Shown: piece by piece, positions 7,275 to 64,000 of the stretch | How the letters are laid out: every line of letters starts with the position of its first letter | How positions within the stretch are numbered: the stretch's first letter is position 1 | Assembly: GCA_037138335.1 (NCBI GenBank) | Contig: JBAXIO010000005.1 | Location: 93,088 to 157,087 of the forward strand | Length of the DNA stretch: 64,000 nucleotides | Source: Bacteroidota bacterium | GTDB lineage: Bacteria > Bacteroidota > Bacteroidia > Bacteroidales > FEN-979 | Direction: 5' to 3' | The notes under the pieces: generated by a model | What the model was told of the DNA's origin: nothing | The model's input: only the letters and a program-made list of their open reading frames with translations | Databases searched by the model: none | Program-made: the position numbers and the translations under genes

Positions 7275-7276
7275 AC

Positions 7277-7661: not shown

Positions 7662-8009
7662 ATGCCAAGATCAGTAAATGCAGTTGCCTCCAGGGCCAGA
7701 AGGAAAAAGGTCCTTAAACAAGCCAAGGGGCAATTTGGAAGAAGAAAAAATGTTCTGACCGTAGCTAAAAACTCGGTTGAGAAAGGACTGGGCTATGCTT
7801 ATCGCGACCGCCGTACCAAGAAAAGGAACTTCCGCGGTCTGTGGATCACCCGTATCAATGCAGGTGTGCGCCAGTTCGGATTATCGTATTCGGTTTTTAT
7901 GGGAAAACTTGCTGAAAAAAATATCGCATTGAACCGCAAAACCCTTGCCGACCTCGCAATGAACCATCCTGATGCTTTTAAAGCTATTGTTGAAGAAGTC
8001 AACAATTAG
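7662..8009 (+). CDS. rplT: 50S ribosomal protein L20
   Basis: [30 protein letters not shown]...[23 protein letters not shown], 115 aa. Confidence 0.95.
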
Positions 8010-20269: not shown

Positions 20270-20271
20270 AA

Positions 20272-28539: not shown

Positions 28540-28558
28540 AATCAGGATTAAATTTCAT

Positions 28559-29737: not shown

Positions 29738-29759
29738 AAAACAGATATTGAGGTCCTAA

Positions 29760-31610: not shown

Positions 31611-31622
31611 TGGCGTTGGTTG

Positions 31623-32822: not shown

Positions 32823-32832
32823 ATAGATAGTA

Positions 32833-33972: not shown

Positions 33973-33984
33973 GATATTATGTTT

Positions 33985-35169: not shown

Positions 35170-35199
35170 TGCCCTGTTTTCTGTATAATTACTTTGAGA

Positions 35200-36387: not shown

Positions 36388-36458
36388 ATTAAAAGTTTAA
36401 TGATTAGCCGAATACTAATGCAAATATAATTGAAACACGAAGCGAATCCAAAAGATTA

Positions 36459-37382: not shown

Positions 37383-37383
37383 T

Positions 37384-38313
37384 TCAGTCCAGGTTTGGGC
37401 TTTTATGCAAATCCCGGTTGAAGGAATTGCTTATTTGCCATCCGATGGCATTTTTGTATGCTTTGAACAGCTTGAACTGACCTTTCATCAGAAAAACGAG
37501 TATGTTTTTCGGAACAGCTACAAGGAACTGGTAAATCAGTGCAAGGATAAACAGGGGGCCATGAACATTGCGTCTCAGGTACAGCAGGCGGTTTCGGTTC
37601 AGGTAGTATATTTTCAGGGGGCTCATTGTCCCTGTCGTAATGGAGTCCTTATGGAAGATCAATGAATTATGAACGTATCCGATCTTATAACCTGCGTCTT
37701 TGATCCTCTGCATCCAGTCCATTTCTTCATAATACAGGAAAAAGATATCAGCCATTAACCCGACTTTTTTCATTACCTCTAGCGGGATCATCATGGCTGC
37801 GCCATAAGCGTATTCAGTATAGGAATCCCGGTCATGCTGTCCTTTATCGGTCTCCTGGAAACCAATCCCCCTGTTTCTTACCGTTATCGGGTTAATCGCT
37901 GTAAATCCGGCATATTGTATTAATTCAGGATGGTAGAAGTACCTGATTTTGGGACTTACAACGCCCAGTGAAGGATCGAGCTGAAGCTTTGACACGAGAG
38001 GTTCAATGAACCCGGGATCAACTTCCGTGTCATTATTTATCAGCAGATGGAACTTCCCTTTTGCAACCCTGATCCCAAGGTTATTACCTCCTGCGAATCC
38101 CAGGTTCTCCTTGCTTTCAATTAAAATGATATCCGGATGTTTTTCTTTAAGAATTGCAGGTTTTTTGGTAGGGGATGCATTATCAACGACAATTATCTCG
38201 TAGGAGGGGTAAGAAATCTTTTTAATTGAGTCAAGAAAAGCAAGTGTAACCTCTGGCTGGTTATAATTTACCGTGATTATTGAAACCATTGGAAATTTAT
38301 CTGCCATAGACAT
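37384..38313 (-). CDS. Soluble family 2 glycosyltransferase; tandem paralog of 36459..37382
   Basis: FPMVSIITVNYNQPEVT, IIVVDNASP, GFAGGNNLGI, LLINNDT, FFLYYEEMDW. By eye it is roughly half identical to its neighbour along the full length. Confidence 0.85.
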   Translation of the reverse strand: MSMADKFPMVSIITVNYNQPEVTLAFLDSIKKISYPSYEIIVVDNASPTKKPAILKEKHPDIILIESKENLGFAGGNNLGIRVAKGKFHLLINNDTEVDPGFIEPLVSKLQLDPSLGVVSPKIRYFYHPELIQYAGFTAINPITVRNRGIGFQETDKGQHDRDSYTEYAYGAAMMIPLEVMKKVGLMADIFFLYYEEMDWMQRIKDAGYKIGYVHNSLIFHKDSITTGTMSPLKIYYLNRNRLLYLRRNVHGPLFILALIYQFLVAVPKNILVFLMKGQFKLFKAYKNAIGWQISNSFNRDLHKSPNLD

Positions 38314-49784: not shown

Positions 49785-50699
49785 TCAACGTTTGCCCGAC
49801 GAACGGAACAGGAAATCTTTCTCATCCCGAGTCAGGCTGTCATAGCCACCCTTTGATATTTTATCGAGAATGCGGTCCATGCGTTTTTGTTTTTCAGCTT
49901 TTTGCAGGTTGTATTCTTCGTCGCTTACCGCACGGGTGCCGGTATAATTTATACTGGCTTTCATGGTCTTTTTCCTGAAAAACCCTGTCCACCACTTAAA
50001 CCCGCCCGGCGGGAGGTTGCCTGCAAGCCCTGATAACTGGATGTAAAGAAACCCAAAAAGGGCACCGCCGATGTGCGCAATATGGCCCCCGGCATTTCCT
50101 GCGGGGATCATAAAGAAGTCGAATATAAACAAAGCAATTGCAAGGTAAAGAATCCGTATCCTTCCAAAGAATAGCAGGTTGACTGAATAATTTGGCACCT
50201 TGAATGAAATAGCGGTGACAATAGCCATCACTGAGGCAGAAGCGCCAAGTGCATAAGAGATCGGCAGGGATGGTGCAAAAACGGGAAAAATATTAAATGC
50301 AAGAATATATACCAGGGCTCCCGAGATGCCTCCCAGGAAATATACTACAAGCAGTTTCCTGCTGCCAAGATATTCCTGGAATATCTTGCCGAACCAAAAG
50401 AACGGCAACATGTTGAAAAGGATATGTGACAGATCGATATGCAGGAACATATACGTCACGATAGTCCAGGGTTTATTGATCAGCAACGGAACCGAAGCCG
50501 GAACCCCGAAGATCCTGATAATGGAAGTTGTGGCTAAGGCCGCATCGGGCTGGTTATATAAAAAGAAAATAATCCTGAAAACCTGCACTAGCAACCATAC
50601 TGCAACATTGACTATGATCAGGTTGGCCAGTACAGACCCTTCCCTGAAAAACCTTTTCAGATTGTCACCTGGATTCGGATTTGCGGAATAGGGGTTCAT
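49785..50699 (-). CDS. Rhomboid-family intramembrane serine protease with a C-terminal soluble extension
   Basis: HIDLSHILFNM, GASASVMA (GxSx), HIAHIGGALFG (catalytic His context), plus a roughly 80-aa charged tail. Confidence 0.8.
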   Translation of the reverse strand: MNPYSANPNPGDNLKRFFREGSVLANLIIVNVAVWLLVQVFRIIFFLYNQPDAALATTSIIRIFGVPASVPLLINKPWTIVTYMFLHIDLSHILFNMLPFFWFGKIFQEYLGSRKLLVVYFLGGISGALVYILAFNIFPVFAPSLPISYALGASASVMAIVTAISFKVPNYSVNLLFFGRIRILYLAIALFIFDFFMIPAGNAGGHIAHIGGALFGFLYIQLSGLAGNLPPGGFKWWTGFFRKKTMKASINYTGTRAVSDEEYNLQKAEKQKRMDRILDKISKGGYDSLTRDEKDFLFRSSGKR

Positions 50700-50702
50700 C
50701 GA

Positions 50703-51533
50703 TTAAAATTTTGCTTTTCGTTTCCAGTACAAGATCATGAAAAATCCGAATATCATGCCCCCCAGATGTGCAAAATGCGCGATATTGTCGGAAGGATTAT
50801 TGGAAATCCCGAGGTAAACTTCCCATGCCCCATAGGCGATTACCAGCCATTTTGCCTTGATAGGGAATAAAAAGTAAATAAAGACCAGCATATTCGGGAA
50901 CATCATCCCGAATGCGAGCAGGATGCCAAAAACCGCCCCGGAAGCTCCAATGGTTGAAATGTCCATTTGCTGTTTGATAAGGTCATAGATATAAACAACA
51001 GATTGCCGCTGGTAATGTACATCGCTCAATGAATTCTGCCATTGGGCAAGAAGGGCGTTCATCTGGTCGAGAATTTCCTGGCTCCTCGGCGGGCATGATT
51101 TAACAAAGGCTACAAAAGCATCAGGGGAAGGTGCCGACGAATAGGCAAGGGCAGCAGCTTCATATCCTGAGAAATGCCAGTAATTGACAGCTGTCTGGAT
51201 AATTCCGGCCCCTATACCTGTAACCAGGTAATATGTAAGGAACCTCTTGGGCCCCCATACATTTTCAAGCAGGTAGCCGAACATCCACAAGGCAAACATA
51301 TTCCAGAGGATATGCTGGAAGGATGCATGAAAAAACATATAAGTCACAAACTGGTAAATTCTGAAGAGGTCCGACTTGAAATAATGAAGCCCGAAAAGAT
51401 TTGTCAGGTCGATCCTGAATGTGCTTTCAAGCGATAAGGTAGCAACATAGCAGATAAGGTTTATGATCAATAGATTTTTTACAACAGTGGGGAGAAGTTT
51501 GAATCCGGTAAGACTATATCGATCGTAACTCAT
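50703..51533 (-). CDS. Rhomboid-family intramembrane serine protease
   Basis: FHASFQHILWNM, GASGAVFGIL (GxSG), HFAHLGGMIFG. Confidence 0.85.
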   Translation of the reverse strand: MSYDRYSLTGFKLLPTVVKNLLIINLICYVATLSLESTFRIDLTNLFGLHYFKSDLFRIYQFVTYMFFHASFQHILWNMFALWMFGYLLENVWGPKRFLTYYLVTGIGAGIIQTAVNYWHFSGYEAAALAYSSAPSPDAFVAFVKSCPPRSQEILDQMNALLAQWQNSLSDVHYQRQSVVYIYDLIKQQMDISTIGASGAVFGILLAFGMMFPNMLVFIYFLFPIKAKWLVIAYGAWEVYLGISNNPSDNIAHFAHLGGMIFGFFMILYWKRKAKF

Positions 51534-51542
51534 AGAGGGCTG

Positions 51543-53402
51543 TTAAGTTTTAAACTTTTTAGAAAGTTCATCGAATGAAAGAACGAAAAAAGCAGGCTTT
51601 CCGTATGGAGACAAATCCGGGATTTTACAGGAAAACAGTTTTTGGCTGATCGATTCCATTTCTTCCTGTTTAAGGGATTTTCCACGTTTGATGGCAAGGG
51701 TCCTGGCCATAGTCTTCGCTATCACCTGTTTTTTTTCTGCATTTTTTCCCGGCAGTTCATTCTTGATCGCTTCGAGGACCTGTTCAACGGCCCCGTGAAA
51801 ATCAGTATGACCAAGGTCGTGGGGAACAGAATGAAGAACAAAATCGTTATTCCCGAATTCAGATATTTCAAACCCGAGGGTGTTAAAATCTTCCAGGAGG
51901 CCGGTAAGCAGAAGTGCATTGCCGGGAGAAAAGTTGAGGGTTTCAGGCATGATCCCCGACCTTGGTGAAGGACCGCCTTCACCTTCTTCAAGCATTTCCT
52001 CAAATAAAATTCTCTCGTGCGCAGCCTGCTGGTCAATAACAAGCAGACCGCCGGCGGTTTCAGTCACAATATATGAGTTGGCAACCTGAAACAGGGGATG
52101 GGAGGAATCAGCAGGTCCGAGGTCAAGCCGAAGGTCCCTGTTTTCATTGGGTTCATCAGGAAGACCCTCAAAAGGGCCGGAAAAAACAGATGTAGCCTGA
52201 TTGCCCGCTGCCCTGGAATTATCCTGCCAGACGTTGCCTGAAGTGGGCCTGCGGGTATCATCGAACCTCAGGCTCGGTTGAAATTCCTGTTTTTTTTCAA
52301 AAGGGTTATAATCAGGGTTAACAGTGATCTGGGGAGGATGAATAACCTGTCCGGGTTTCAGGGGAGGGATATCCATGCTCTGTTCCTGTTCAAAATCCAG
52401 GACTGTCATGAGATTGAACTTCCCCAGCGATTGCCTCACTGCGGCCTGAAGGATTGCATATATGCTTTTACTATCGGTAAAATTAATCTCCGTTTTCGTC
52501 GGGTGAATGTTGACGTCAATATTAGCCGGATCCAATTCAAGGTAAAGGAAATAGGACGCATAGGAATCTTTGGGGATTAATTCCCTGAATGCCGCTTCAA
52601 CAGCATGATGGAGATACGGGTTTCTTATGAACCTGCCGTTGGCAAAAAAAAACTGTTCCCCCCTGGTCTTTTTTGCGAATTCAGGTTTGCCCACAAAACC
52701 GCTGATGTTTACCATGTTGGTAAGCTGCTCAACCGGGATCAGCCTTTGATTGTAATTCTGGCCAAAGAGTGCAACTATACGCTGCCGCAGGTTGGCAGAA
52801 GGAAGCTGATACATTACTTTGTCCTGGTGGTACATCGTGAAAGCGATATCGGGGTGGACCAGGGCGACACGGGTAAACTCGTCAAGTATAAATTTAAGCT
52901 CCGATGTGTTTGATTTCAGGAAATTTCTTCGCGCAGGAACGTTATAAAACAGGTTCTTGACCGAGATGCTGGTTCCGTTGGGAGTGTTATACGGACCGTG
53001 GTTTCTGACCTCCGACCCTTCGATAATCAGCTGGGTCCCGATTTCATCTTCGGCTTTCTTAGTCCTCAGTTCAACATGGGAAACTGAAGCAATGGAAGCA
53101 AGGGCTTCTCCCCGAAAACCGAGTGTGCGGATTGAAAACAGGTCATGGGCTGTCTGTATCTTGGAAGTTGCATGCCTTTCAAAACACATCCTGGCATCTC
53201 TTTCCGACATGCCGCAGCCATTATCAATAACCTGGATCAGTGCCCTGCCGGCTTCCTTTATTACAAGCTTGACTTCTGTTGCGCCTGCGTCAATAGTATT
53301 TTCAAGCAGTTCCTTGACAGCTGAGGCCGGTCGCTGCACGACCTCACCGGCAGCTATCTGGTTCGCGACTGATTCGGGAAGCATCCTGATAATATCCGAC
53401 AT
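51543..53402 (-). CDS. mutL: DNA mismatch repair protein MutL
   Basis: IAAGEVVQRPASAVKELLENTIDAGA, DNGCGM, LGFRGEALASI. Start moved to MSDIIRMLPE (ATG 53402). Confidence 0.95.
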   Translation of the reverse strand: MSDIIRMLPESVANQIAAGEVVQRPASAVKELLENTIDAGATEVKLVIKEAGRALIQVIDNGCGMSERDARMCFERHATSKIQTAHDLFSIRTLGFRGEALASIASVSHVELRTKKAEDEIGTQLIIEGSEVRNHGPYNTPNGTSISVKNLFYNVPARRNFLKSNTSELKFILDEFTRVALVHPDIAFTMYHQDKVMYQLPSANLRQRIVALFGQNYNQRLIPVEQLTNMVNISGFVGKPEFAKKTRGEQFFFANGRFIRNPYLHHAVEAAFRELIPKDSYASYFLYLELDPANIDVNIHPTKTEINFTDSKSIYAILQAAVRQSLGKFNLMTVLDFEQEQSMDIPPLKPGQVIHPPQITVNPDYNPFEKKQEFQPSLRFDDTRRPTSGNVWQDNSRAAGNQATSVFSGPFEGLPDEPNENRDLRLDLGPADSSHPLFQVANSYIVTETAGGLLVIDQQAAHERILFEEMLEEGEGGPSPRSGIMPETLNFSPGNALLLTGLLEDFNTLGFEISEFGNNDFVLHSVPHDLGHTDFHGAVEQVLEAIKNELPGKNAEKKQVIAKTMARTLAIKRGKSLKQEEMESISQKLFSCKIPDLSPYGKPAFFVLSFDELSKKFKT

Positions 53403-53519
53403 ACGCTGATCCTGTATATTTCCTGTAATAGGTGGCACTTGCAAAAATACCATTTTTTCCCAGCCGGAATTCCGATTTCAGGGAGAAAGAGTACCTTTGG
53501 AATAGATAATTATTAACAT

Positions 53520-53900
53520 ATGAATGACAGTGATGCCAAATTAAAAAATCTCATTGTTGTAGGGGACAGGGTTTTGATAAAACCCAAAAAGATATTCAAC
53601 AAGACCAAAGCTGGTTTGTTTCTTCCGCCTGGTTACCAGGAGAAAGAAGAAATCCAAACGGGTTTTGTCGTGAAAATCGGCCCCGGGTATCCTATTCCGC
53701 TTTTATCAGATGATTTCAATGAAAGCTGGAAAAAGAATGAAGAAAAAATAAAATATATCCCGCTTCAGGCAAAAGAAGGGGATTTGGCAATATTCCTCCA
53801 AAAAGGGGCCATTGAAATAATTTTCAATGACGAAAAATATTTTATTGTGCCTCAGAATTCCATACTGCTCCTCGAAAGGGAGGAGCAGATGTTTGATTAG
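53520..53900 (+). CDS. GroES/Cpn10-like co-chaperonin family protein (stand-alone, extended)
   Basis: VGDRVLIKPKK...TKAGLFLP...QTGFVVKIGPG...EGDLAIF pattern of the Cpn10 fold. 126 aa, with no adjacent groEL. Confidence 0.55.
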   Translation: MNDSDAKLKNLIVVGDRVLIKPKKIFNKTKAGLFLPPGYQEKEEIQTGFVVKIGPGYPIPLLSDDFNESWKKNEEKIKYIPLQAKEGDLAIFLQKGAIEIIFNDEKYFIVPQNSILLLEREEQMFD

Positions 53901-54457
53901 AACCTTGACCTGTCCAGGACAGGAAACCTCATCTGTACAAGATAGAAGGCTCCATAAAATACGGCGCTGAAAAACGTTGTCCCCAGGATATCATTCACGA
54001 AGAATGAGAACCCGTTAGTTGTATCCCTGAAAAATACCAGGCCTGCAATATAACATTCCATCAGGCCCATAAAATTTTTAGGATACAACCCCATGGCAAG
54101 CCATGAAGAGAAGTTGGTGATCAGGAAAAAGATTATAGCGGATGCAATTGAAGCTGTAAAAACTGATCCAACCGTAACTTTTTTCCGGATAGCCATACCC
54201 AGAACAACCGTAATGGCAAAACTCAGATATACGGCAGGCATGTTTGCGTGAAGACCGATAATGAGGTCGCTGATGAACATCGCGGCGACCGGAATGGCGA
54301 AAGCAAACTGCTTTCTGTCAAAATAGGTACCTGCAAACAAAGCCATAGCCGCTATCGGCGTAAAGTTCGGCCAATGCGGGAGCAACCGTAACAGGGCTGC
54401 AGCAAGAATTACTGAAAAAACAACAATAAACCTAGGTGTAATAGATTTATATAGCAT
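53897..54457 (-). CDS. Multi-pass membrane protein (resembles the DUF6580 putative transporter family)
   Basis: Five to six TM helices. LRLLPHWPNFTPIAAMALFAG resembles the family N-terminal signature as I recall it. Confidence 0.45.
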   Translation of the reverse strand: MLYKSITPRFIVVFSVILAAALLRLLPHWPNFTPIAAMALFAGTYFDRKQFAFAIPVAAMFISDLIIGLHANMPAVYLSFAITVVLGMAIRKKVTVGSVFTASIASAIIFFLITNFSSWLAMGLYPKNFMGLMECYIAGLVFFRDTTNGFSFFVNDILGTTFFSAVFYGAFYLVQMRFPVLDRSRF

Positions 54458-54480
54458 TAATATATCGTGTTAATATCTTA

Positions 54481-54488
54481 CAAAAATA
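54481..54488 (-). promoter_or_regulatory. Candidate -7 box TATTTTTG for the membrane-protein gene
   Basis: Minus-strand exact TAnnTTTG match, 23 nt upstream of the ATG at 54457. Confidence 0.3.
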
Positions 54489-54533
54489 TAAAATCATTTG
54501 TATTAAAGTCAAGTTTTCGTGAAAATTGTTTCC

Positions 54534-54541
54534 TACTTTTG
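54534..54541 (+). promoter_or_regulatory. Candidate -7 box TACTTTTG for the amidohydrolase gene
   Basis: Exact TAnnTTTG match, 31 nt upstream of the ATG at 54573. Confidence 0.3.
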
Positions 54542-54572
54542 AATACTCTGATCAAATTCAGCTAATTGGCCC

Positions 54573-56222
54573 ATGAATAAAAAGTTGTTAACACTGAGTT
54601 TAACTCTGCTTTTTCTGCTTAATTCCTGTAACCTGATGAAAACCAAGACCGATTTGATCGTTTATCATGCGAAGATTTACACCGTTGATAAGGTTCTCAC
54701 CGTGGTTGAGGCAATGGCTGTAAATAACGGGAAGATCATTGCCACAGGTTCTACACGGGATATCCTGGAGAAATATAAATCTGAAAGAAAGCTTGACGCA
54801 GGGGGGAAGCCGGTATACCCCGGATTTATTGATGCCCATTGCCATTTTTACGGATATGCACTGAATTTCAGGTATATAGTCTTAAATGACTGCAAGTCCT
54901 TTGACGATATCATCATCCGCATTCAGCAATCGGGGAAATACAGTCCCAGGGACTGGATCGTTGGAAGAGGATGGGATCATAATCTGTGGAAGGAAAAGAA
55001 ATTCCCTGACCGCAGGAAACTGGATGAATTATATCCCGGGAACCCGGTAGTGCTAACCCGGATCGATGGCCATGTTGTCCTTGCAAATAATATGGCCTTA
55101 CAAAAGGCAGGGATAGACCCTGATAATACATTTCAGGCAGGTGAGGTTGAGACCCGTCTTGGGACACTTACAGGGATACTCAGTGAAAATGCAGCAGATC
55201 AAATGCGGAATGCCATCCCAAAACCCGGGCCCGGCATGCTCCTGGGCCTGCTTGCGAGAGCCGGGGAAAACTGTTTTGCCGCCGGGCTGACGACAGTTTG
55301 CGATGCAGGCCTTGACGCCGAAACTGCCGGGCTGCTGTGCGACTTATCCTCCGGGCCTGATTCTTCCCGGATGATCCGTGTTTATGCAATGCTTTCCCCC
55401 AGCGGTGAGAATATCAAACAGTTTATACTGAAAGGGCCTTATAAAAATTCACGCATTCGTATAAATTCGGTTAAAATGTATGCTGATGGCAGCCTGGGAA
55501 GCCGGACGGCCCTCCTTAAGCAAGCTTATTCCGACATGCCAGGCAATCACGGGATACAGGTCGTTTCTGCCGATTCCCTCAGGAAAATCTGCAAACTCTG
55601 CCTTGACTGCGGTTACCAGCTCAATACCCATGCCATTGGTGACTCGGCAAACAACATAGTACTCAGTATTTACGGAGAATACCTGAAAGGGACGAATAAC
55701 CGGAGGTGGAGGATAGAGCATTGCCAGGTTGTGGATCCTGCCGATCTGCATAAGTTCAGGGACTATTCCGTCATCCCGTCGATCCAGGCTACGCATGCCA
55801 CGTCCGACATGGGCTGGGCCAACGACAGGCTGGGCACTGAAAGGATCAGAGGGGCTTATGCATATAAAAGCCTTCTTAAGCAAAATGGGTGGCTTGCCAA
55901 TGGAACTGACTTTCCGATAGAGAACATCTCGCCTTTACTGACCTTTTATGCATCAGTATCACGAAAGGATATGGAAGGTAAACCTGCCGGTGGTTTTCAG
56001 CCTGAAAATGCCCTGAGCAGGGAAGAAGCCCTGAGATCCGTGACAATCTGGGCCGCAAGGGCTGATTTCTGGGAGGATGAAATAGGGAGTATCGAGGTGG
56101 GCAAGAACGCCGATTTCGTAATACTTGACAGGGATATTATGCTGGTTGATGAAAGCGAAATACCAAAAACAAACGTATTGGCAACCTTCGTTGCCGGACT
56201 TGAGATCTACACCCGGAAATAA
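54573..56222 (+). CDS. Amidohydrolase-family (YtcJ-like, Amidohydro_3) metal-dependent hydrolase, lipoprotein
   Basis: Lipobox LLNSC, metal-binding PGFIDAHCHF, downstream HAIGD and IQATHATSD, C-terminal GSIEVGKNADFVILD. Confidence 0.8.
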   Translation: MNKKLLTLSLTLLFLLNSCNLMKTKTDLIVYHAKIYTVDKVLTVVEAMAVNNGKIIATGSTRDILEKYKSERKLDAGGKPVYPGFIDAHCHFYGYALNFRYIVLNDCKSFDDIIIRIQQSGKYSPRDWIVGRGWDHNLWKEKKFPDRRKLDELYPGNPVVLTRIDGHVVLANNMALQKAGIDPDNTFQAGEVETRLGTLTGILSENAADQMRNAIPKPGPGMLLGLLARAGENCFAAGLTTVCDAGLDAETAGLLCDLSSGPDSSRMIRVYAMLSPSGENIKQFILKGPYKNSRIRINSVKMYADGSLGSRTALLKQAYSDMPGNHGIQVVSADSLRKICKLCLDCGYQLNTHAIGDSANNIVLSIYGEYLKGTNNRRWRIEHCQVVDPADLHKFRDYSVIPSIQATHATSDMGWANDRLGTERIRGAYAYKSLLKQNGWLANGTDFPIENISPLLTFYASVSRKDMEGKPAGGFQPENALSREEALRSVTIWAARADFWEDEIGSIEVGKNADFVILDRDIMLVDESEIPKTNVLATFVAGLEIYTRK

Positions 56223-56290: not shown

Positions 56291-56923
56291 TTATTTCAGT
56301 TCCTTGCAGAAAAATTTCCCAAGTGGCTTTCCAGCCGATTCATAAGCTTCTGATATTCTTAAACCCGTATCATAGGTTTCTTTGCTGACCGGCACACCTC
56401 CGACTGTCATTCGTGAAGTGCTGCCTTTTCCGGTAGATTCAATTGAAGCGATCACTTTATCGGGAGCTTTGGTCTCCACTATGTCGATCACAAGATCAAC
56501 CTGCGATGCCTTTGTCCCTACATAGGCTTCAACGCCCTGCTCCATAAACCTGGTATGAACTACCATAGTGTACGTTGCATCCGTTGCATTTGATTTCAAT
56601 TCAATGCCGCAATCCTCAGCCTTATTATTAAAAGCTTCGGCAAAGGCACCGGGAAAACGATCGGTTTGATCACTCTTCCATTTAACAGCCCATGCATCGC
56701 CTGTCCCTGGTTTCTTATCATTCCTGTCGGCCGTCCCTTTCTTTATGTAATCATCTTCTTTGTCAAATTTTCCAACCTTCATGTTCTGGTAATCAAACTG
56801 AAGATTAATGGTTTTCTGACCTTTCAGTACTGAGAGATTTCCTGATTTGAGTTTCTGTGAAAACAGATTGTTCCCTGCAAAAAGAAAGAAACTCATCATT
56901 AAAAGAATGCTAATTTTTTTCAT
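56291..56923 (-). CDS. Secreted hypothetical protein
   Basis: Signal peptide MKKISILLMMSFFLFAGNNLFSQ. No motif recognised. Confidence 0.5.
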   Translation of the reverse strand: MKKISILLMMSFFLFAGNNLFSQKLKSGNLSVLKGQKTINLQFDYQNMKVGKFDKEDDYIKKGTADRNDKKPGTGDAWAVKWKSDQTDRFPGAFAEAFNNKAEDCGIELKSNATDATYTMVVHTRFMEQGVEAYVGTKASQVDLVIDIVETKAPDKVIASIESTGKGSTSRMTVGGVPVSKETYDTGLRISEAYESAGKPLGKFFCKELK

Positions 56924-57022: not shown

Positions 57023-58339
57023 TCAGGAATGGGATGCCTTGTTCCTGTTATCGATGAACTTCATCGCTTTCCTTCCGCCTTCAGGGAACTGGACTTTCAG
57101 AATTTCTTCAGGTTTATGGAACTTTACCTGGGGTGCCACCCTGAGCCTGGCCCTGAAATGATCTTTGATATCCTTTTCCAGTTCAGGGCTGAACTGGTTT
57201 GTACCTGCATTGATGATTATTTCATCTGTCCCGATTTCATTGGTATACACCTCAACATAATAATTCCTGATATACGGGATATTATCGAGGATATCATATA
57301 ATGCGGGAGGGTAAAGCGTCGTGCCTTTAAATTTAATCATCTGTTTCCGGCGGCCTATCACCGGTCCAAGCCTCATGGTAGTCCTGCCGCAGGAACAAGG
57401 TCCGGTGTAATGGTAGCACACATCGCCTGTTTTAAACCTCAGCAGGGGGGTACCCTGAACTCCCAGGGTGGTAACAGTAACTTCACCCGGCTGATCTTCT
57501 TCTACGGGATTTCCGTTGTCATCGAGGAATTCAACGATGATCAGCTCGGGATGGTGGTGCCCTCCTGTCCCTGCACTGCATTCGGTAAACGTAGTAGCCA
57601 TCTCGGTCGAAGCATAAGTGGAATATAGCTTCAACGGCCATTTCTCTATTATTTTCCTGCCAAGTGCATTCAGGCTGAGATCGGGATTTCTCAAAGGTTC
57701 ACCAATACATACTGCTTTCGTAATACTTGATGAACGGTAGTCTATCCCGTTTTGTTCTGCATACTCAATGATTTTCAGAATAAAGGAGGGTACAACGATG
57801 ATTGCATTGGGGCGGATCCTGTTAATGGTATCCCACTGAAGTTCAGGGATGCCGTTGCCAACCCTTACAATGGATGCCCCCAGTTTCCTTATCCCGAGAA
57901 AATAAGCCATGCCTGCCATAAACCGCCGGTCCAGGGTGGTCATAAGCTGGTAGGTGTCATCCACGGAACCGTCGGCACAGGTAAAGGAAAGTGCTTCGTT
58001 ATATGCAAGACGGTCAAGGTCACTATCGGTCATGGCTACCGTGACCGGATCCCCCATTGTGCCTGAAGTCGTAATATAATCAACAATTTTGCTCCTGGGG
58101 ACGCAAATAAAATCCTCGTTGAATTGCTGAAGATGGGTTTTGTCGGTAAGCGGTATCCTCACAAGGTCTTCCAGGTGTCTGATACTTCCCGGGTCTATGG
58201 CATGCTCGTTGAACAGTCTTTTATAAAAGGCGGAATTAGCCCCTGCATAGTGCAGCATTTCACGCAGGGCAACTTCCTGGAACTTTTTTATCTCATGTGA
58301 AGACTGGCTCTCAATAGCAGGGAAAAAAGATTTTTCCAT
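57023..58339 (-). CDS. Phenylacetate-CoA ligase / coenzyme F390 synthetase-like adenylate-forming enzyme
   Basis: YITTSGTMGDPVTV (AMP-binding P-loop variant typical of PaaK), YSTYASTE, FKTGD, C-terminal lid; 438 aa. Confidence 0.7.
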   Translation of the reverse strand: MEKSFFPAIESQSSHEIKKFQEVALREMLHYAGANSAFYKRLFNEHAIDPGSIRHLEDLVRIPLTDKTHLQQFNEDFICVPRSKIVDYITTSGTMGDPVTVAMTDSDLDRLAYNEALSFTCADGSVDDTYQLMTTLDRRFMAGMAYFLGIRKLGASIVRVGNGIPELQWDTINRIRPNAIIVVPSFILKIIEYAEQNGIDYRSSSITKAVCIGEPLRNPDLSLNALGRKIIEKWPLKLYSTYASTEMATTFTECSAGTGGHHHPELIIVEFLDDNGNPVEEDQPGEVTVTTLGVQGTPLLRFKTGDVCYHYTGPCSCGRTTMRLGPVIGRRKQMIKFKGTTLYPPALYDILDNIPYIRNYYVEVYTNEIGTDEIIINAGTNQFSPELEKDIKDHFRARLRVAPQVKFHKPEEILKVQFPEGGRKAMKFIDNRNKASHS

Positions 58340-58356
58340 CTGTTTAAGGGTGATCC

Positions 58357-59058
58357 CTAGAATTTAAACCCGATCAGTACCCTGAAGGTTGTATTATCAA
58401 CTTTAAAAGTCGGGTTATCATCATGGTTATAAGTGAATTTGACTTTGCCCCAGTTATATTGGAATGCAAAGAGCATAAATTTATACCTGAGCCCTAAACT
58501 GGCTTCATTGAGCGTATAGCTTGAGCCCCACATGCTGTTATACCATGCAGCCGTGGCATTGAGCTTATATGAAAGATCTATCATGAGGTAGTCAACGGGA
58601 TTTATTGTCAATACAGGACCGAACTTCTGGCCTCCGAAGTAATACCAGTATTCCAGTTTTTTAGAGGAACTTGAATTGGCAGGCAGGGTTTGGTCTGTAG
58701 GGTTAAACGATGCAGTGAGAAAAGTTGCATCGATACCGGCCCTGATATGATGATTTGCAAAGGAAGGGCCAATGTATATGAGGAATCCGAATTCGAATAC
58801 AAATCCTGCCTTGGCTTTATTGAACTTTATTGTATCGGTCTTGCCTTGATATTTGTAATAATTCGCATGGGGATTAGCAAATTCACCCATAGGGAAAGAA
58901 CCTCCCAGCTTCAGGTAAAAACCACTTTTAATATGATTCTCACCAACTTTTTTCTGGGTAGTCTGGGGCTGCATTTGTGTCTGGGCTGGCTGATCCTGGG
59001 CAAATACAAATGCACTTATAAAAAGTACGAACATTAAAGAAAGGAAACATTTTTTCAT
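58357..59058 (-). CDS. Putative outer-membrane beta-barrel protein
   Basis: Signal peptide MKKCFLSLMFVLFISAFVFAQ, alternating amphipathic strands, C-terminal FRVLIGFKF ending in Phe. Start trimmed to the second ATG. Confidence 0.5.
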   Translation of the reverse strand: MKKCFLSLMFVLFISAFVFAQDQPAQTQMQPQTTQKKVGENHIKSGFYLKLGGSFPMGEFANPHANYYKYQGKTDTIKFNKAKAGFVFEFGFLIYIGPSFANHHIRAGIDATFLTASFNPTDQTLPANSSSSKKLEYWYYFGGQKFGPVLTINPVDYLMIDLSYKLNATAAWYNSMWGSSYTLNEASLGLRYKFMLFAFQYNWGKVKFTYNHDDNPTFKVDNTTFRVLIGFKF

Positions 59059-59112
59059 AATGGCTGCTTTATCAGGGGTTAATTGATCCAATAATACAAA
59101 GATACAAATGTA

Positions 59113-60195
59113 TCAGGAATAGGAGTGTTTCTTCATGTACTCTTTTAATTCAGATTTAATAGTTGCTTTATCACCTTCAGGCAATGAAAAACTGTTTTTC
59201 CTGAAATTACGGTTCATGGAAGTAAATTCCTTAATCATTTTTTCCTGGCGTTCTGTAAATACCAGCCCCAGCTGCGCATAAACCTGTTTCACTGTCATCA
59301 CGGGATCATTTTCAAGGTCTTCAAACCTGGTTACAGCATATGATCCTGCAGACAAACCACCCGCTTCTGTATTGATCTTTTCTTCAATAAGTTTTATCCC
59401 CCGGCAGACCTCCTGACAGTTAAATTTATGGGATTCACTGCCAAGTGCATTTTCCTTTTGCAGTATATTCCACATGTTCATGGTTGAAGGGACAACGTCA
59501 AACGGGTGCCGGTGTATCTGGATGAACCTGGCTTTCGGAAAGGCCTCAAGGAGCAGGCCAAGCCTGAAGGAATGGAAAGGGTTCTTTGAAAGTATGATAC
59601 CTCTTTTAAAATACGTGATTTTCCTGTAGAATGATTTCAACTCCTCTTTGATATGTTCATTTGTTCCGGGGGATGGCATATTCTTTGCCCAATCCTCCAC
59701 AAAATATTTCCCGTTCCGGGGGAAGACCAGCTGTTCAAGGGGAGAAGTTCCGGTAAGCCTGAAAATTGCATATTCGTCCTCCTGGGGTTCATCCATCCCC
59801 ACTTTTACATTGTCCATGGGCCTGGTTTCCCTGACAAGAGCCTTCATAATGGGTTTGTAATATGCATGGGATGTAAGCAGGCTGTCAGGTTCTGCAACCT
59901 GGAAAAGGGTAGGAGCGGTGAATTGCTCATCCAGGCTCATCAGTTTATACAATAAGGTTGTTCCGGTGCGCCAATGGCCGATGATGAATACGGGATCAAG
60001 GGGAGGGGGTGTTTCTTTCAGACGTTTTCCGAACCTTACTTTTTCAATCGAAGCAAAGAGGCTTGACCATAATGAACTCTGCAATAAAAAAAGAATTCTC
60101 AGCAAAGTCTTTGCATCCCGGCTGATTTTATTCCTGGCCAGGATACTGAACAGCTGTCCGGATGTCATCCCGGCAGTTAGGTAGGAATGTTTCAA
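59113..60195 (-). CDS. Sulfotransferase-family protein
   Basis: 5'-PSB-like loop FIIGHWRTGTTLLYKLMS and 3'-PB-like FIQIHRHPFDVVPS. Confidence 0.7.
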   Translation of the reverse strand: MKHSYLTAGMTSGQLFSILARNKISRDAKTLLRILFLLQSSLWSSLFASIEKVRFGKRLKETPPPLDPVFIIGHWRTGTTLLYKLMSLDEQFTAPTLFQVAEPDSLLTSHAYYKPIMKALVRETRPMDNVKVGMDEPQEDEYAIFRLTGTSPLEQLVFPRNGKYFVEDWAKNMPSPGTNEHIKEELKSFYRKITYFKRGIILSKNPFHSFRLGLLLEAFPKARFIQIHRHPFDVVPSTMNMWNILQKENALGSESHKFNCQEVCRGIKLIEEKINTEAGGLSAGSYAVTRFEDLENDPVMTVKQVYAQLGLVFTERQEKMIKEFTSMNRNFRKNSFSLPEGDKATIKSELKEYMKKHSYS

Positions 60196-60207
60196 GAATC
60201 AGTTGTA

Positions 60208-60492
60208 TTAGGACTGTGGCCCCTGTTGGGAAACGAGAAATTCGGCTATGCTGTTTATTGACCGTATCACAGAACGTGCAAGGTTCTGATCGGCAATCCT
60301 CAGGTGGTATTTTCGCTGTATTGCCATTATGATCTCCAATGCGTCAACTGAATCCAGTGTAAGCGCATTTTCTCCTCCGAACAATGGTTTGTCATTATCA
60401 ATCTCTTCAGGAGCTATCCCGGTAATCCCAAGAGTTTCCATGATAAGAATTTTAATCTCGGTCCTCAGTTCTTCAGTCACAACCTGGTTCAT
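60208..60492 (-). CDS. Acyl carrier protein
   Basis: 94 aa. Phosphopantetheine attachment context GENALTLDSVDALEIIMAI. Start trimmed to MNQVVTEEL, which removes the overlap with the upstream gene. Confidence 0.8.
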   Translation of the reverse strand: MNQVVTEELRTEIKILIMETLGITGIAPEEIDNDKPLFGGENALTLDSVDALEIIMAIQRKYHLRIADQNLARSVIRSINSIAEFLVSQQGPQS

Positions 60493-60502
60493 GTAAGTTG
60501 AT

Positions 60503-61513
60503 TTAGTTGATGGTTTTTGACAATCGTTTAAAAAAGTCCTCTTCCTTTTCAGCCCGCTGATAAAGAAAATCACTCATTTGTTTGAATTTTTCAGCCCCAA
60601 GGTCGCGGTTCTTCCCGATCTTTGCAGCAAAGAGAGAGAATTCCCTCCAGCCGTCGCCTATCTCCATAAGCTCCTTTGCAAGATCCTTCAGTTCGGGTTT
60701 ATTAATAATGTCTGAGGCTTGTTGGAGGAATGTCGCATACATAAACCTGAAGCCTGCCCCTCCGGTTCCCTGGTCTTCAAGCAGTATGTTGATCTTCATC
60801 ACCTCATGCGAAAGATGCTCTGTGTCACGGGCCATAGCCGGCCATTCGGTGATTTTTTTAGCAAACAGCCTTATCCCTTTGATGCCCAGGAAAGGGATAG
60901 GGATGCTTAACATATTAAAACATGCTTTTTTGATTCCCCTGCGGATGGCTTTTTCGTAATCAAATGATTGAGGGACGTATTCAGGATAGAAGAGAAAGCC
61001 TTTGGGAGACATGCTCCCCTGTGCAAACCTTCCTTTGTTCATCGATTCAACGGGAAGGTCAACAGGATCAGGGAAATAGGAATCGCTGACCTTGTATACA
61101 TCTCCTTCCTTGCCGATTGCGACGAGGAAGTGTACGTTAATATGGACACGTTCCCAGGAGGGTACATAATCCAGATAAAACATATCGACCTGAGTGGCTG
61201 CCGGGATCCCTTTTGAGATGAGCATATCAAGCGCTTCCTGGCCCGCTCCGGGGTTTTTAAAATCCCTGGTATAAAATTTAACCCCTGTCCTCCTGGAGAG
61301 ATTTTTTCTCATCTGCCCCGGCTTGTTCCTGACTATGAAGGTGGGGAAGGCAAAGGATTTCATTTTATGGAAATAGCCGAAAAAAATTCCGCTCGAGATA
61401 CCGAATACCATGGGCTCGGTGATCTTCATCCCTGAATGGTTCAGTAAGGAAGTTATAGAGCCCGATTCACAATGGGCCGCCATCTTATGCTGATAATTTT
61501 CTACTTTCATCAC
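60503..61513 (-). CDS. BtrH N-terminal-domain-like protein (papain/C39-like fold; ACP-dependent acyltransferase family)
   Basis: HCESGSITSLLNHSGMKITEPMVFGISSGIFFGY resembles the BtrH_N signature as I recall it; lies immediately upstream of an ACP gene. Confidence 0.5.
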   Translation of the reverse strand: MMKVENYQHKMAAHCESGSITSLLNHSGMKITEPMVFGISSGIFFGYFHKMKSFAFPTFIVRNKPGQMRKNLSRRTGVKFYTRDFKNPGAGQEALDMLISKGIPAATQVDMFYLDYVPSWERVHINVHFLVAIGKEGDVYKVSDSYFPDPVDLPVESMNKGRFAQGSMSPKGFLFYPEYVPQSFDYEKAIRRGIKKACFNMLSIPIPFLGIKGIRLFAKKITEWPAMARDTEHLSHEVMKINILLEDQGTGGAGFRFMYATFLQQASDIINKPELKDLAKELMEIGDGWREFSLFAAKIGKNRDLGAEKFKQMSDFLYQRAEKEEDFFKRLSKTIN

Positions 61514-61514
61514 G

Positions 61515-61910
61515 TTAATTTCGTTTCCCCGACTGCCTTTTCAGGATCTCATCCGCAGTAATATTAAAAACAACGGAATACTTTTTGATAGCCGATTCAC
61601 TGATCTTTGAAAAATTGCCAGGTTTCAGATGCCTGCGAACAATCCACTTCATCATTCCTGCACGTGCAGCAAGTTCAGAGAGAGTCAGGTCTTCAAGGAT
61701 CATATAATATTCAATCGCATTGATCTCTCCTCTCCCGATTTTTTCCCCCAGTGCTTTCTCCAGGTTAGCCCGTTTCAGGAAATAATCATCAAGGTAATTA
61801 GCCGAAATGTATGAACCTGTTTGAATGGCCTCATACTTCCCGTCCTCTTTCTCGACATACAATATGACCTGTTGTTCAGGACAATCGGATATTCCGTCCT
61901 TTTCTTTCAT
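61515..61910 (-). CDS. Small protein with a C-terminal helix-turn-helix-like segment
   Basis: LTLSELAARAGMMKWIVRRHL resembles an HTH; 131 aa. Weak call. Confidence 0.4.
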   Translation of the reverse strand: MKEKDGISDCPEQQVILYVEKEDGKYEAIQTGSYISANYLDDYFLKRANLEKALGEKIGRGEINAIEYYMILEDLTLSELAARAGMMKWIVRRHLKPGNFSKISESAIKKYSVVFNITADEILKRQSGKRN

Positions 61911-61930
61911 CCGCTCCCACTGTTTGAAAA

Positions 61931-63121
61931 TTAAGTTTTTCTCATTGCAAAAATATAAATGCTGCTAATCATTGCAAAAATGAAGAAGGCAAAGAGCAGC
62001 AGGCTCCTGGGCAAAATAGTCAAAATTCCGCCTCCGCGGATAAATACATCAAGGTAATTGTCGATTCCCCATCGCATGGGGGAAACCAGGCTGATGCCCT
62101 GTATCACTTTCGGCATCACATGCACCGGGAGAAAAGTGCCGCTGATCACACCAAGGAGGACAACCATGACCGAGCCGAACAGGGAGGCCTGGGCCATTGT
62201 GCCGGATGCCGAGCCCACCAGGATCCCGAATCCTATCGCTGCAAGTGAAGAAGCCGCCGTGGCAAACAAAATAGCCGCGATATTATTCCCGATCTCCAGG
62301 CGGGGCAGCCCAAGGAGGCCGGGGAAGACCCACAATCCGACCAGCATCATCAGGAAGAACTGGATCAGGCATACCATGAAATAGACCAGGACCTTTGATC
62401 CGAGTATGGTCCCGAAACCTACAGGCAGTGTGCGCAGCCTCTGGAAGGCTCCTTCGTTTTTTTCGTTTATTATGCTTGCTGCCAGGGGGATCACGATAAA
62501 GAACATGGCAAAGAGTATAAAGCCCGGTACAATATTTTGAATTGCTGTCGGCCTTAACTCCTGCATCCCTGAGCCCGCGAAGGATTCCTTTACCGGCGGA
62601 AGCTTTATCGTGCTTTCCTCAATGGATTTATCTATAAGGGGCTTCATGTCACCCGACGAAAAGGCAAGCATTTTTTCGACGATATCCCTGGTTTGCGTGC
62701 CTTTAATCAGGTATTTCAATGGAGTCACAATGTTTGCACGGTATGGCCCTGAAATGGCAGGATCGGTTATGATCTCAATGGCCGAGTCGCCTGTTCCTAT
62801 AAAGATGCCGATGGAGTATTTCCCCGAACTGATCAGCGCCGTGGCTTTTTCCCTGTTTACCTCAGAGCCCCCGACGAGAGTATCAGGCTCAAAGAATCCG
62901 CTGGATTTAAGATTTTCGACGAGGGAGAGGGTGAACCCAGAATGGCTGTTATCGATGAACAGCAACCTGGTTTTCCCCAGCTCGTTCCTGAGGGTATATT
63001 CCTGGGCAAGGATAACTACAGTCATAAGCAAAACGGGCATCAGGAAAAGTATCAGAAGCCCGGGAACATCCCGAACGATGATAAGTAATTCCTTTTTTGC
63101 CGAAAACCACAGCTTGCTCAT
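61931..63121 (-). CDS. ABC-2 type transporter permease
   Basis: N-terminal TM helix, about 150-aa extracytoplasmic loop, then five C-terminal TM helices (ABC2_membrane_3-like topology). No ATPase gene lies inside the window. Confidence 0.65.
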   Translation of the reverse strand: MSKLWFSAKKELLIIVRDVPGLLILFLMPVLLMTVVILAQEYTLRNELGKTRLLFIDNSHSGFTLSLVENLKSSGFFEPDTLVGGSEVNREKATALISSGKYSIGIFIGTGDSAIEIITDPAISGPYRANIVTPLKYLIKGTQTRDIVEKMLAFSSGDMKPLIDKSIEESTIKLPPVKESFAGSGMQELRPTAIQNIVPGFILFAMFFIVIPLAASIINEKNEGAFQRLRTLPVGFGTILGSKVLVYFMVCLIQFFLMMLVGLWVFPGLLGLPRLEIGNNIAAILFATAASSLAAIGFGILVGSASGTMAQASLFGSVMVVLLGVISGTFLPVHVMPKVIQGISLVSPMRWGIDNYLDVFIRGGGILTILPRSLLLFAFFIFAMISSIYIFAMRKT

Positions 63122-63135
63122 CCTGCAAAGTTAAA

Positions 63136-64000
63136 TTATTCTCCGACTGTTTCCAGGATTGAAAGCGGGGCAATGGTTGGTATGATCTGCTTCAGCCTTA
63201 GCCCCGATTTCTTAAGCAGGCTGTGAAATTCCTGCCTCGTCCGTTCCCTCCCCCCGGGCATTGTAGCAAGCATCTGGATATCGACCATTTTGGAATAGGA
63301 GGAAATTTCAGGGCCGGGCACGACCATTTCAAGGATCAGCAATTTCGAGCGTTTTGGCATGGCTTTGCGAAGATTTGCCAGGATCAGGCGGCATTGTTCA
63401 TCATCCCAGTTGTGAAGTATGTTCTTCATAATATAAAGATCGGCCGGGATGCTGAACGGCTCGAGGAAACTGCCGGGGATGAAAGTCATTCGCCTGCTCA
63501 GGCCGCATGAGCCTATAAAGGCTGTTGCTTTCCCTGAATTTTCAGGCAAATCAAGCAAAAAACCTTCAGCATCAGTGTTTTTCTCAAGTATACGGGCAAG
63601 TAGTAAACCTTCGCCTCCACCTATATCGGCTATCGTTTTAAAGGATGAAAAATCGTAGCGTGAAATTACAGGATCAAAAGCCAGGGCCGACAGGTCCGAC
63701 ATGGATCTTTCGAACCGCCGAAGTTCATCATGGTCCTCCTGAAGATAGGGATAGATATCCATGCCATAAGTGTAAGTGAAAGCGTTTTCACCTGTCTTTA
63801 CCGTGTGCAGCAGGTTTCCCTGGGCCGACCAGTTAATCTTCCCGAGGTGGTGAAGGATCATGTTTCTCAGGCTGCCTTCGCCATCAAGCAGGGCCTTTGC
63901 GCGGGAATTCAGCATAAAGCGCCGGCCATTCTTTTCTATGAATATCCCTTCAGAGGCAAGGGCTCTCAGTATCCTGTACAATGCTTCGGGCCGGCAACCG
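63136..64000 (-). CDS. Family 2 (COMT-like) SAM-dependent O-methyltransferase; 5' end lies beyond the window
   Basis: Frame stays open to base 64000 (GCRPEALYRILRALASEGIF: dimerisation/winged-helix domain). SAM motif I IADIGGGEGLL, family signature YIMKNILHNWDDEQC. Confidence 0.8.
   Translation of the reverse strand, partial: GCRPEALYRILRALASEGIFIEKNGRRFMLNSRAKALLDGEGSLRNMILHHLGKINWSAQGNLLHTVKTGENAFTYTYGMDIYPYLQEDHDELRRFERSMSDLSALAFDPVISRYDFSSFKTIADIGGGEGLLLARILEKNTDAEGFLLDLPENSGKATAFIGSCGLSRRMTFIPGSFLEPFSIPADLYIMKNILHNWDDEQCRLILANLRKAMPKRSKLLILEMVVPGPEISSYSKMVDIQMLATMPGGRERTRQEFHSLLKKSGLRLKQIIPTIAPLSILETVGE

Follow-up and report, generated by a model that had tools for sequence, protein, structure and literature searches.

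The probable 3′ end of a flexirubin-type aryl-polyene lipid cluster, with an accessory DarH2-ACP2-sulfotransferase module, in an uncultured lake Bacteroidales

Gene content of the locus

The window analysed here is a stretch of 64,000 nucleotides (nt) from a Bacteroidota assembly (GCA_037138335.1, contig JBAXIO010000005.1), and this work concerns the gene group at its end, positions 57023-64000, and the relation of this group to flexirubin-type pigment clusters. A preliminary description, made from the sequence alone, had reported eight tightly packed minus-strand genes in this region. This was confirmed by the listing of open reading frames (ORFs), which contains all eight at these coordinates, and the gaps of 1-54 nt between them are compatible with one operon. 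These genes, and the one that follows them, are given below with the evidence for each.

56291..56923, minus strand: 210-amino-acid (aa) secreted protein encoded after FlxY, perhaps a ninth member, perhaps only conserved flank; position only
57023..58339, minus strand: FlxY, CoA ligase for aryl acids (4-coumarate) of the flexirubin type, 438 aa, final biosynthetic gene of the cluster; NF053551, AMP-binding and AMP-binding_C_2
58357..59058, minus strand: OMP244, 233-aa secreted protein from its probable start, putative small outer-membrane beta-barrel; signal peptide, C-terminal F233, position
59113..60195, minus strand: sulfotransferase (ST) dependent on 3′-phosphoadenosine 5′-phosphosulfate (PAPS), mycobacterial Stf type, accessory, 360 aa from a probable TTG start; Sulfotransfer_3, AlphaFold2 (AF2) fold
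60208..60492, minus strand: ACP2, dedicated acyl carrier protein (ACP), 94 aa; PP-binding, phosphopantetheine-attachment Ser in LDSVD
60503..61513, minus strand: DarH2, BtrH-related Cys/His acyltransferase, 336 aa; BtrH_N and DUF4872, NCBIfam DarH_acyl
61515..61910, minus strand: DarG2, DarG-family protein, 131 aa, possible helix-turn-helix (HTH); NCBIfam DarG_fam
61931..63121, minus strand: ABC-2 type permease, 396 aa, the cluster's second permease; ABC2_membrane_3, ABC2_membrane, ABC2_membrane_2
63136..64000, minus strand: COMT-like O-methyltransferase (OMT), C-terminal 288 of 363 aa in the window; Methyltransf_2

Pfam bore out the earlier domain calls for six of the eight products, namely the adenylating enzyme, the ST, the ACP, the BtrH_N/DUF4872 protein, the ABC-2 permease and the OMT. 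For the remaining two, the description stood only in part. The 131-aa protein had been called HTH-like, and the sole sign of an HTH in it is a sub-threshold HTH_26 match (E 0.05); it reaches, at 71.1 bits, the cutoff of 70 of the NCBIfam DarG_fam model. The presumed beta-barrel outer-membrane protein (OMP), OMP244, belongs to no Pfam or NCBIfam family, including in per-member Pfam scans of 12 homologues, and its signal peptide, its C-terminal Phe (F233, invariant in the family) and its position are consistent with an OMP, although they are no proof of one. The profile of its family matched only Neisseria Opa60 in the PDB (E 0.085), and its AF2 single-sequence model was unusable (pLDDT 35). OMP244 is kept between the ST and FlxY in most relatives. 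Its ORF extends over 58357-59091, and the start is probably the ATG at 59058; the public call of 225 aa begins too late and cuts off the signal peptide.

The protein encoded at 57023-58339 had been described as a PaaK/F390-synthetase-like ligase, and this assignment had to be replaced. It scores 707 bits against the NCBIfam model NF053551 (FlxY_rubin), for which the cutoff is 520, whereas the PaaK models gave 151-171 bits against cutoffs of 646-700 and F390_ftsA gave 98 bits against 459, so that both of these identities were rejected. The FlxY homologue of Chitinophaga pinensis was shown biochemically to be a 4-coumarate-CoA ligase, and 4-coumaroyl-CoA is the primer for the aryl-polyene part of flexirubin (PMC3992019).

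The window gave no matches in Rfam and tRNA scans, and a promoter and terminator scan of 55.8-64 kb gave counts no higher than in shuffled sequences, with a sigma-70 consensus that is not appropriate for Bacteroidota.

The cluster upstream of the window

The extension was obtained by looking up the ST protein, which is encoded on 16 public contigs; an exact look-up of the window DarH in its 336-aa form starting at GTG returned no match. The contig designated L007 overlaps the window at 100% identity over 406 nt, and a further one, L142, overlaps L007 at 100% over 1561 nt, and since the three tile at 100% identity they were assigned to one organism. In this way about 35 kb was added past position 64000 through identical metagenome contigs, and the rebuilt cluster (window, L007 and L142) reaches at least 42 kb. 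The sequencing runs that contain the window's sequence are lake and freshwater metagenomes. In transcription order, the cluster comprises the following genes.

Genes 1-3: ABC ATPase, ABC-2 permease, 4HBT thioesterase
Then: ketosynthase (KS), 221-aa protein, ACP, two KS/KS-like pairs, polysaccharide deacetylase
Then: LolA2_flexi, LolB2_flexi, ApeI-like dehydratase (DH), thioesterase, two enoyl-CoA hydratases
Then: weakly StlD/DarB-like beta-ketoacyl-ACP synthase III (KAS III), 858-aa fusion of a B12-dependent radical S-adenosylmethionine enzyme (B12-rSAM) with 3-hydroxyacyl-CoA dehydrogenase (3HCDH), Haem_bd protein
Then: FabF-like KS, ACP, FabD, followed by two B12-rSAM genes on the opposite strand
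Then: FlxT (GT2 and DUF2062), FlxU (1289-aa fusion of MMPL, PlsC and methyltransferase), FlxV (CrtD-like reductase), FlxW (C45 acyltransferase)
Then: 423-aa B12-rSAM, 128-aa protein, 796-aa CarboxypepD_reg/Plug (TonB-receptor-like) OMP
End, in the window: OMT, ABC-2 permease, DarG2, DarH2, ACP2, ST, OMP244, FlxY

The architectures and order of FlxT-U-V-W on L007 and on another contig (L001) match the published flxT-W table of C. pinensis; the assignment is made by architecture and synteny, NCBIfam having given no Flx-specific match for these four proteins. LolA2_flexi on L142 scored 210 bits against a cutoff of 125, and LolB2_flexi scored 91 bits against 60 on an 84%-identical homologue in L140. 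Additionally, type II pairs of KS and chain-length factor (CLF), ACPs, an ApeI-like DH and thioesterases were recognised by Pfam and NCBIfam upstream on L142 and L140. In the relative L131, the FlxB ketoreductase (KR) was found at 407 bits (cutoff 340), as was the FlxA tyrosine ammonia-lyase (TAL) at 837 bits (cutoff 700).

A total of 133 loci was compared, with FlxW as the anchor in metagenomes and DarH2 as the anchor in GTDB species representatives; some of the loci are duplicates of one organism. The same gene order was found across dozens of independent loci from metagenomes and metagenome-assembled genomes (MAGs), down to about 40-50% protein identity, which makes the arrangement far from a chance one. 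All genome matches are MAGs; their labels are Bacteroidales, Bacteroidota, Prolixibacteraceae and Rikenellaceae, and in one case Spirochaetota, and they come from lakes, sediments and similar sites. One of the loci, L109, bears the label Draconibacterium orientale.

The preliminary description had offered, as a fallback, that the region could be the edge of a flexirubin/aryl-polyene-type cluster, and the extended contigs and NCBIfam equivalogs bear this reading out. There is good confidence that the locus belongs to a flexirubin-type cluster and that DarH2, ACP2 and the ST form an accessory module in it, and it is likely, on a somewhat lower level of assurance, that a flexirubin-type cluster for an aryl-polyene lipid, at least 42 kb long, has its 3′ end at 57023-64000 in an uncultured lake Bacteroidales. 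FlxY and the DarH, DarG, ABC-2 permease, ACP and OMP types are standard members of flexirubin clusters, and the ST and OMT are not. DarH, DarG and an ABC-2 permease are listed among the members of the dar/flexirubin clusters in C. pinensis and Flavobacterium johnsoniae (PMC3992019).

A second transfer module

DarH2 matches BtrH_N (1e-37) and DUF4872 (2e-45) in Pfam, and it scores 334 bits against the NCBIfam DarH_acyl equivalog, for which the cutoff is 300. In L131, two DarG/DarH pairs are found back to back. The canonical pair there scores much higher (DarH1 464 bits, DarG1 155 bits) and has as neighbours an ABC ATPase, a TIGR04072-type B12-rSAM, an LpxL-like acyltransferase, a KS, FlxB and FlxA, and the pair of the window's type is followed by an ACP, the ST, the 423-aa B12-rSAM and the 128-aa protein. 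The lower scores of the window's DarG and DarH, together with the two pairs of L131, identify the window pair as a second paralogue type, here called DarG2/DarH2, and DarH1 of L131 is only about 36% identical to the window DarH2. The cysteine of HCExG and the histidine of HxNxH are kept in both DarH types, as expected for BtrH-like Cys/His acyltransferases. ACP2 lies 10 nt downstream of DarH2, is 36% identical to the ACP of the upstream polyene module, and always stands between DarH2 and the ST in the loci compared.

In the preliminary description, the eight genes had been read as a compact ACP-centred tailoring cluster: an acid is activated, carried on the ACP and transferred by the BtrH-like protein, and the product is methylated and/or sulfated and exported through the permease and the OMP. 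Taken as a rival to the present reading, this would be a self-contained pathway that needs no polyene machinery, with the ligase charging the adjacent ACP and an amine accepting the acyl group. BtrH of butirosin biosynthesis, an ACP:aminoglycoside acyltransferase that moves the acyl group from ACP to amine, provides a precedent for such a transfer. Moreover, in one subclade the block of LpxL-like acyltransferase, OMT, ABC-2 permease, DarG2, DarH2, ACP, ST and OMP stands away from FlxT-W beside unrelated genes, so that the module is physically separable, and some of the detached copies (L107, L111 and L113) retain FlxY. However, the ligase is a FlxY equivalog, a CoA ligase for 4-coumarate, and it occurs apart from the module: in the distant relatives L076-L084, FlxY directly adjoins FlxW with nothing between them, and the DarG2-DarH2-ACP-ST module is found without FlxY in L099, L101, L108, L114 and L135. 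The adjacency of FlxW and FlxY also indicates that the block from the 423-aa B12-rSAM to OMP244 is an insert into the canonical arrangement. Furthermore, the block is embedded in a flexirubin-type cluster in the window organism and most relatives, and the window permease has no adjacent ATPase, the only one seen being encoded at the far 5′ end of the cluster. A self-contained pathway was thus considered unlikely, and membership in the flexirubin-type cluster is preferred.

Two further observations concern these arrangements. In L081-L084, which are Bacteroidota contigs of 460-700 kb (one labelled human gut metagenome), the canonical adjacency FlxT-U-V-W-FlxY is seen at 47-62% identity, without the insert and without the ST. 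In L108, an LpxL-type acyltransferase (Lip_A_acyltrans; 6366-7286), of the same family as FlxE/Fjoh_1104 in the canonical clusters, precedes the detached module running from OMT to ST.

The sulfotransferase and its co-variation with an outer-membrane protein

In Pfam, the ST matches Sulfotransfer_3 (E 2e-29) and also Sulfotransfer_1. The PDB folds closest to its AF2 model (pLDDT 91.9) are those of the mycobacterial Stf9 (2Z6V, TM-score 0.71) and Stf1 (2ZQ5, 0.65), and the ST domains of CurM and olefin synthase, TPST and the cytosolic SULTs are far from it (TM ~0.3-0.4). A sequence search of the PDB detected only Stf1 and Stf9 (3e-6, ~15% identity). A CurM-type ST as the closest relative was rejected, with TM 0.39-0.42 against 0.65-0.71 for Stf9/Stf1 and no alpha/beta-hydrolase thioesterase adjacent. 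Among 62 homologues, the PAPS-binding elements are invariant, namely the 5′-phosphosulfate-binding motif (5′-PSB) GHWRTG (G64-H-W-R-x-G69) and the residues R220, P222 and S228 of the 3′-phosphate-binding motif (3′-PB) RHPxDVVPS, as is a PQEDEY motif, which characterises the family together with an N-terminal helical extension of about 50 residues. Translation probably starts at the TTG at 60195, giving 360 aa, because the first nine residues then match the family consensus MKxSYLTAG; the public call of 351 aa starts nine codons further downstream and looks too late. An all-against-all search returned 460 cluster representatives at E<=1e-30, of which only about 40 are full-length with at least 34% identity, and further out it passes into a broad Sulfotransfer_3 group, C-terminal fusions among its members. 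Many of the homologues carry the automatic JGI label of the Stf3 type, a menaquinone-lipid sulfotransferase.

The ST directly follows DarG2-DarH2-ACP in 61 of the 71 loci with this slot visible, and two more homologues that were looked up independently, one of them on a contig labelled 'Chlorobi', have the same context. On the DarH2 tree, the state of the ST changes at least six times with presence as the inferred ancestral condition, and the gene appears to have been lost at least six times. No ST remnants were detected in the loci that lack it, even at E 10, and absence through chance of assembly or filtering was therefore rejected. A 796-aa OMP was scored at the position that separates the 128-aa gene from the OMT, and where both slots are visible its presence coincides fully with that of the ST (29 loci with both, seven with neither, none discordant), the seven joint absences falling in four separate places of the tree.

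A role of the ST in core biosynthesis was also considered, in which it would sulfate a hydroxy intermediate, either free or bound to ACP2, to provide a leaving group, and elimination or decarboxylation would then give a double bond, as with the STs of CurM and olefin synthase, retinol dehydratase and LGS1. The position of the ST immediately after an ACP fits this role, the pathway makes a polyene, and CurM ST (4GBM), olefin-synthase ST (4GOX), retinol dehydratase (1X8K) and LGS1 are all among the significant fold matches. However, these matches are weak (TM ~0.36-0.42) beside those of Stf9 and Stf1, no CurM-type thioesterase adjoins the ST, and the double bonds of the polyene are already accounted for by KR and DH genes (FlxB and the ApeI-like DH). 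In addition, the ST is dispensable in at least six lineages that keep everything else, as would be expected of an optional decoration more than of a core step, and its co-variation with an OMP points to a surface-exposed sulfated end product. A leaving-group role was accordingly regarded as quite improbable. Least probable of all is that the ST acts on a non-lipid part or another molecule, such as a sugar added by FlxT or an unrelated envelope glycan, and shares the cluster for co-regulation only: the cluster does encode the GT2 protein FlxT and a polysaccharide-deacetylase-like protein, and carbohydrate sulfotransferases exist among Sulfotransfer_3 enzymes, but the closest structures are mycobacterial Stf proteins, many homologues bear the lipid-type label, and the ST tracks DarH2-ACP2 rather than FlxT through every rearrangement.

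Interpretation and proposed pathway

Several observations speak against a flexirubin-type pathway with a sulfated product. FlxA and FlxB were seen only in the relative L131, the sequence covered in the window's own organism ending upstream at the ABC ATPase. Among the proteins scanned over about 49 kb, DarA had no match and DarB was represented only by a weak StlD/DarB-like KAS III (84-109 bits against cutoffs of 450-550). DarA and DarB define the dialkylresorcinol half of true flexirubin, and because they were not found in the DNA covered, beyond whose upstream end they may still lie, the locus is filed as flexirubin-type and not as a flexirubin cluster proper; strictly speaking, the product may be something other than a flexirubin. 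The position held by DarB/DarA in F. johnsoniae is taken in L131 by a B12-rSAM. DarG2 clears only the subfamily cutoff, and barely, as it gave 66.6 bits against the 170 required by the flexirubin_DarG equivalog. In L104 and in the subclade L099, L101, L107, L108 and L111-L114, the ST is present without the 796-aa OMP within 5-7 kb upstream of the OMT; in these same loci, the module lies away from FlxW. Lastly, we infer the substrates of DarH2, ACP2, OMT and ST from the families of these proteins.

The cluster of the window organism contains four B12-rSAM genes in addition to the rSAM/3HCDH fusion. This abundance, and the B12-rSAM in the DarB/DarA slot of L131, suggests that the B12-rSAM set may be an oxygen-independent replacement of part of the pathway. 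The enzyme of L131 (2610-4384), located between DarG1 and the LpxL-like acyltransferase, is of the TIGR04072 type annotated for lipid biosynthesis (420 bits against 360). No other protein of the cluster approaches the conservation of the 423-aa B12-rSAM beside FlxW, encoded just past the window end (L001:1844-3115). Where relatives have a FlxW of only 51-80% identity, this B12-rSAM is still 84-96% identical (homologues in L008-L139), and it is always accompanied by the 128-aa protein, which is of no known family. In the basal arrangements L124-L126, L130-L133 and L144, this pair lies directly 3′ of the ST.

The following pathway is proposed. FlxY would make 4-coumaroyl-CoA, starting from tyrosine through the TAL FlxA, and this would prime the upstream polyene synthases, which are like fatty acid synthases of type II. 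DarH2 would take an acyl chain from ACP2 and attach it to a hydroxyl (or amine) of the lipid as it is built, thereby duplicating the canonical DarH1 step, and its acceptor is probably a lipid hydroxyl rather than an amine. The COMT-like OMT would methylate a phenolic hydroxyl, and the Stf-type ST, using PAPS, would sulfate a remaining one, phenolic or on the chain, to yield an anionic pigment lipid. The pair of ABC-2 permeases, LolA2/LolB2 and the OMPs would carry the product to the outer membrane, with the ST and the 796-aa TonB-receptor-like OMP forming one optional unit by which the sulfated form is made and then handled at this membrane. We infer from these steps that the product is probably a sulfated and O-methylated aryl-polyene lipid. 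That the pathway ends in a stable sulfate ester of the pigment lipid is put forward tentatively, falling somewhat short of probable. More doubtful is the broader proposal of a new class of outer-membrane pigment lipid in anaerobic Bacteroidales/Marinilabiliales, namely an O-sulfated and O-methylated flexirubin-like aryl-polyene with a second acyl group added via DarG2-DarH2-ACP2, B12-rSAM enzymes replacing DarA/DarB, and a dedicated TonB-receptor-like OMP; if it holds, the ST/OMP pair would be a switchable surface-charge module.

Flexirubins are a textbook chemotaxonomic marker of aerobic Bacteroidota. The clade described here, of uncultured Bacteroidales and Marinilabiliales mostly from anoxic water, carries a rebuilt flexirubin pathway that has several B12-rSAM enzymes, a second BtrH-type module with its own ACP and, in most lineages, a lipid-type ST tied by repeated co-loss to an OMP. 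A sulfated aryl-polyene lipid, if the pathway does make one, would be a new type of bacterial sulfolipid or pigment. The paired paralogues DarH1 and DarH2 also offer a natural experiment on what DarH enzymes do. For annotation, a PaaK-like ligase with BtrH and an ACP at a contig edge is to be taken as the FlxY/DarH end of a flexirubin-type cluster.

Comparison with known systems

The clusters of F. johnsoniae UW101 (Fjoh_1074-1110) and C. pinensis (flxA-flxY and a dar cluster) (PMC3992019) share with the present one FlxY, FlxT-U-V-W in the same order, LolA2/LolB2, the polysaccharide deacetylase, KS/CLF pairs, ACPs, thioesterases, an ABC-2 permease with ATPase, a BtrH-like DarH and DarG, and, in F. 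johnsoniae, OMP-barrel genes. In contrast, the ST, the COMT-like OMT and the B12-rSAM enzymes do not appear in the published tables for the two species, a second DarG2-DarH2-ACP set stands here between FlxW and FlxY, and DarA/DarB were not found here. The hosts differ as well, being uncultured Bacteroidales and Marinilabiliales of anoxic lake water and sediment here, whereas the canonical ones are aerobic Flavobacteriia or Chitinophagia. The darA-K set of Azoarcus sp. BH72, which makes arcuflavin (PMC3949708), likewise brings together genes for a BtrH-like protein, an ACP, an ABC transporter and a small conserved hypothetical protein, and it too is linked to an aryl-polyene pigment; however, it is built on DarA/DarB and has no ST, and the window pair is a divergent paralogue.

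As in BtrH of butirosin, the BtrH_N domain of DarH2 has the conserved Cys and His, and a dedicated carrier protein is adjacent, but no aminoglycoside (butirosin) genes were found among about 49 kb, and DarH2 has the additional DUF4872 and belongs to the DarH family. The ST shares its fold and its 5′-PSB and 3′-PB motifs with mycobacterial Stf proteins, among which Stf3 is that of sulfomenaquinone, although it comes from another phylum and another genomic context. With the ST domains of CurM and olefin synthase it has in common a significant fold match and a place beside an ACP in a polyketide- or fatty-acid-like pathway; unlike them it is a stand-alone protein with no partner thioesterase and is dispensable in several lineages.

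In the literature library searched, no paper links a sulfotransferase with flexirubin, or with an aryl polyene in Bacteroidetes. The search gave for BtrH with dialkylresorcinol no more than the paper on Azoarcus and a preprint on Chryseobacterium, and for Prolixibacteraceae with flexirubin-type pigments only a general taxonomy paper. Surveys based on antiSMASH merely list 'flexirubin' matches in Bacteroidales and Chlorobi bins (PMC5383146). A known kind of cluster explains the main finding. Three features of it are undescribed, namely the accessory pair of ST and OMP, the duplication of the DarH module and the anaerobic version rich in rSAM enzymes. The earlier remark that the combination of a sulfotransferase with a BtrH-like transferase maps to no described pathway still holds.

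Other cluster proteins and neighbouring genes

The OMT matches Methyltransf_2 (5e-44), and its full-length form of 363 aa on L001 adds a Dimerisation domain, which together make it COMT-like; an identity of the full-length protein with FlxJ, the canonical methyltransferase, was rejected (30 bits, cutoff 560). The window permease is 34% identical to its counterpart next to the ABC ATPase with which the cluster begins at its 5′ end, and it is missing in L039, L050, L053, L102 and L104. In some relatives, a further gene, for a protein of about 590-600 aa with the N-terminus MNK..PHSFHIPVLGIGYSIDTPVKVAHLGISSV, stands before the OMT, after the 128-aa gene or the OMP, as in the following loci.

L098:5414-7174: extra protein of about 590-600 aa
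L103:5365-7149: extra protein of about 590-600 aa
L030:13561-15369: extra protein of about 590-600 aa

The 210-aa secreted protein had no family match in Pfam and NCBIfam scans, and it lies 3′ of FlxY, or of OMP244 where FlxY is missing, in most relatives. The genes beyond it (amidohydrolase, DUF6580, MutL) are also syntenic, so that synteny does not decide its membership in the cluster. The flank at 49785-56222 encodes an amidohydrolase, a DUF6580 protein, a Cpn10-like gene, MutL and two rhomboids. This order is kept beside the cluster even in relatives whose cluster proteins are only about 45% identical (L108, L145), so that the chromosomal position of the cluster is conserved and its inheritance looks vertical.

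Elsewhere in the window, a run of GT2 and GT4 glycosyltransferases with a beta-helix protein at 26917-38313 resembles an exopolysaccharide or glycan locus, and a hybrid histidine kinase/response regulator is encoded upstream of it at 24669-26084. A cargo protein of the type IX secretion system (1022 aa, with Por_Secre_tail) is found at 20266-23334, and a LysM protein of 896 aa at 41388-44078. The AT skew of +0.21 in the 2-kb bin 6001-8000 is several-fold above that of the remaining window.

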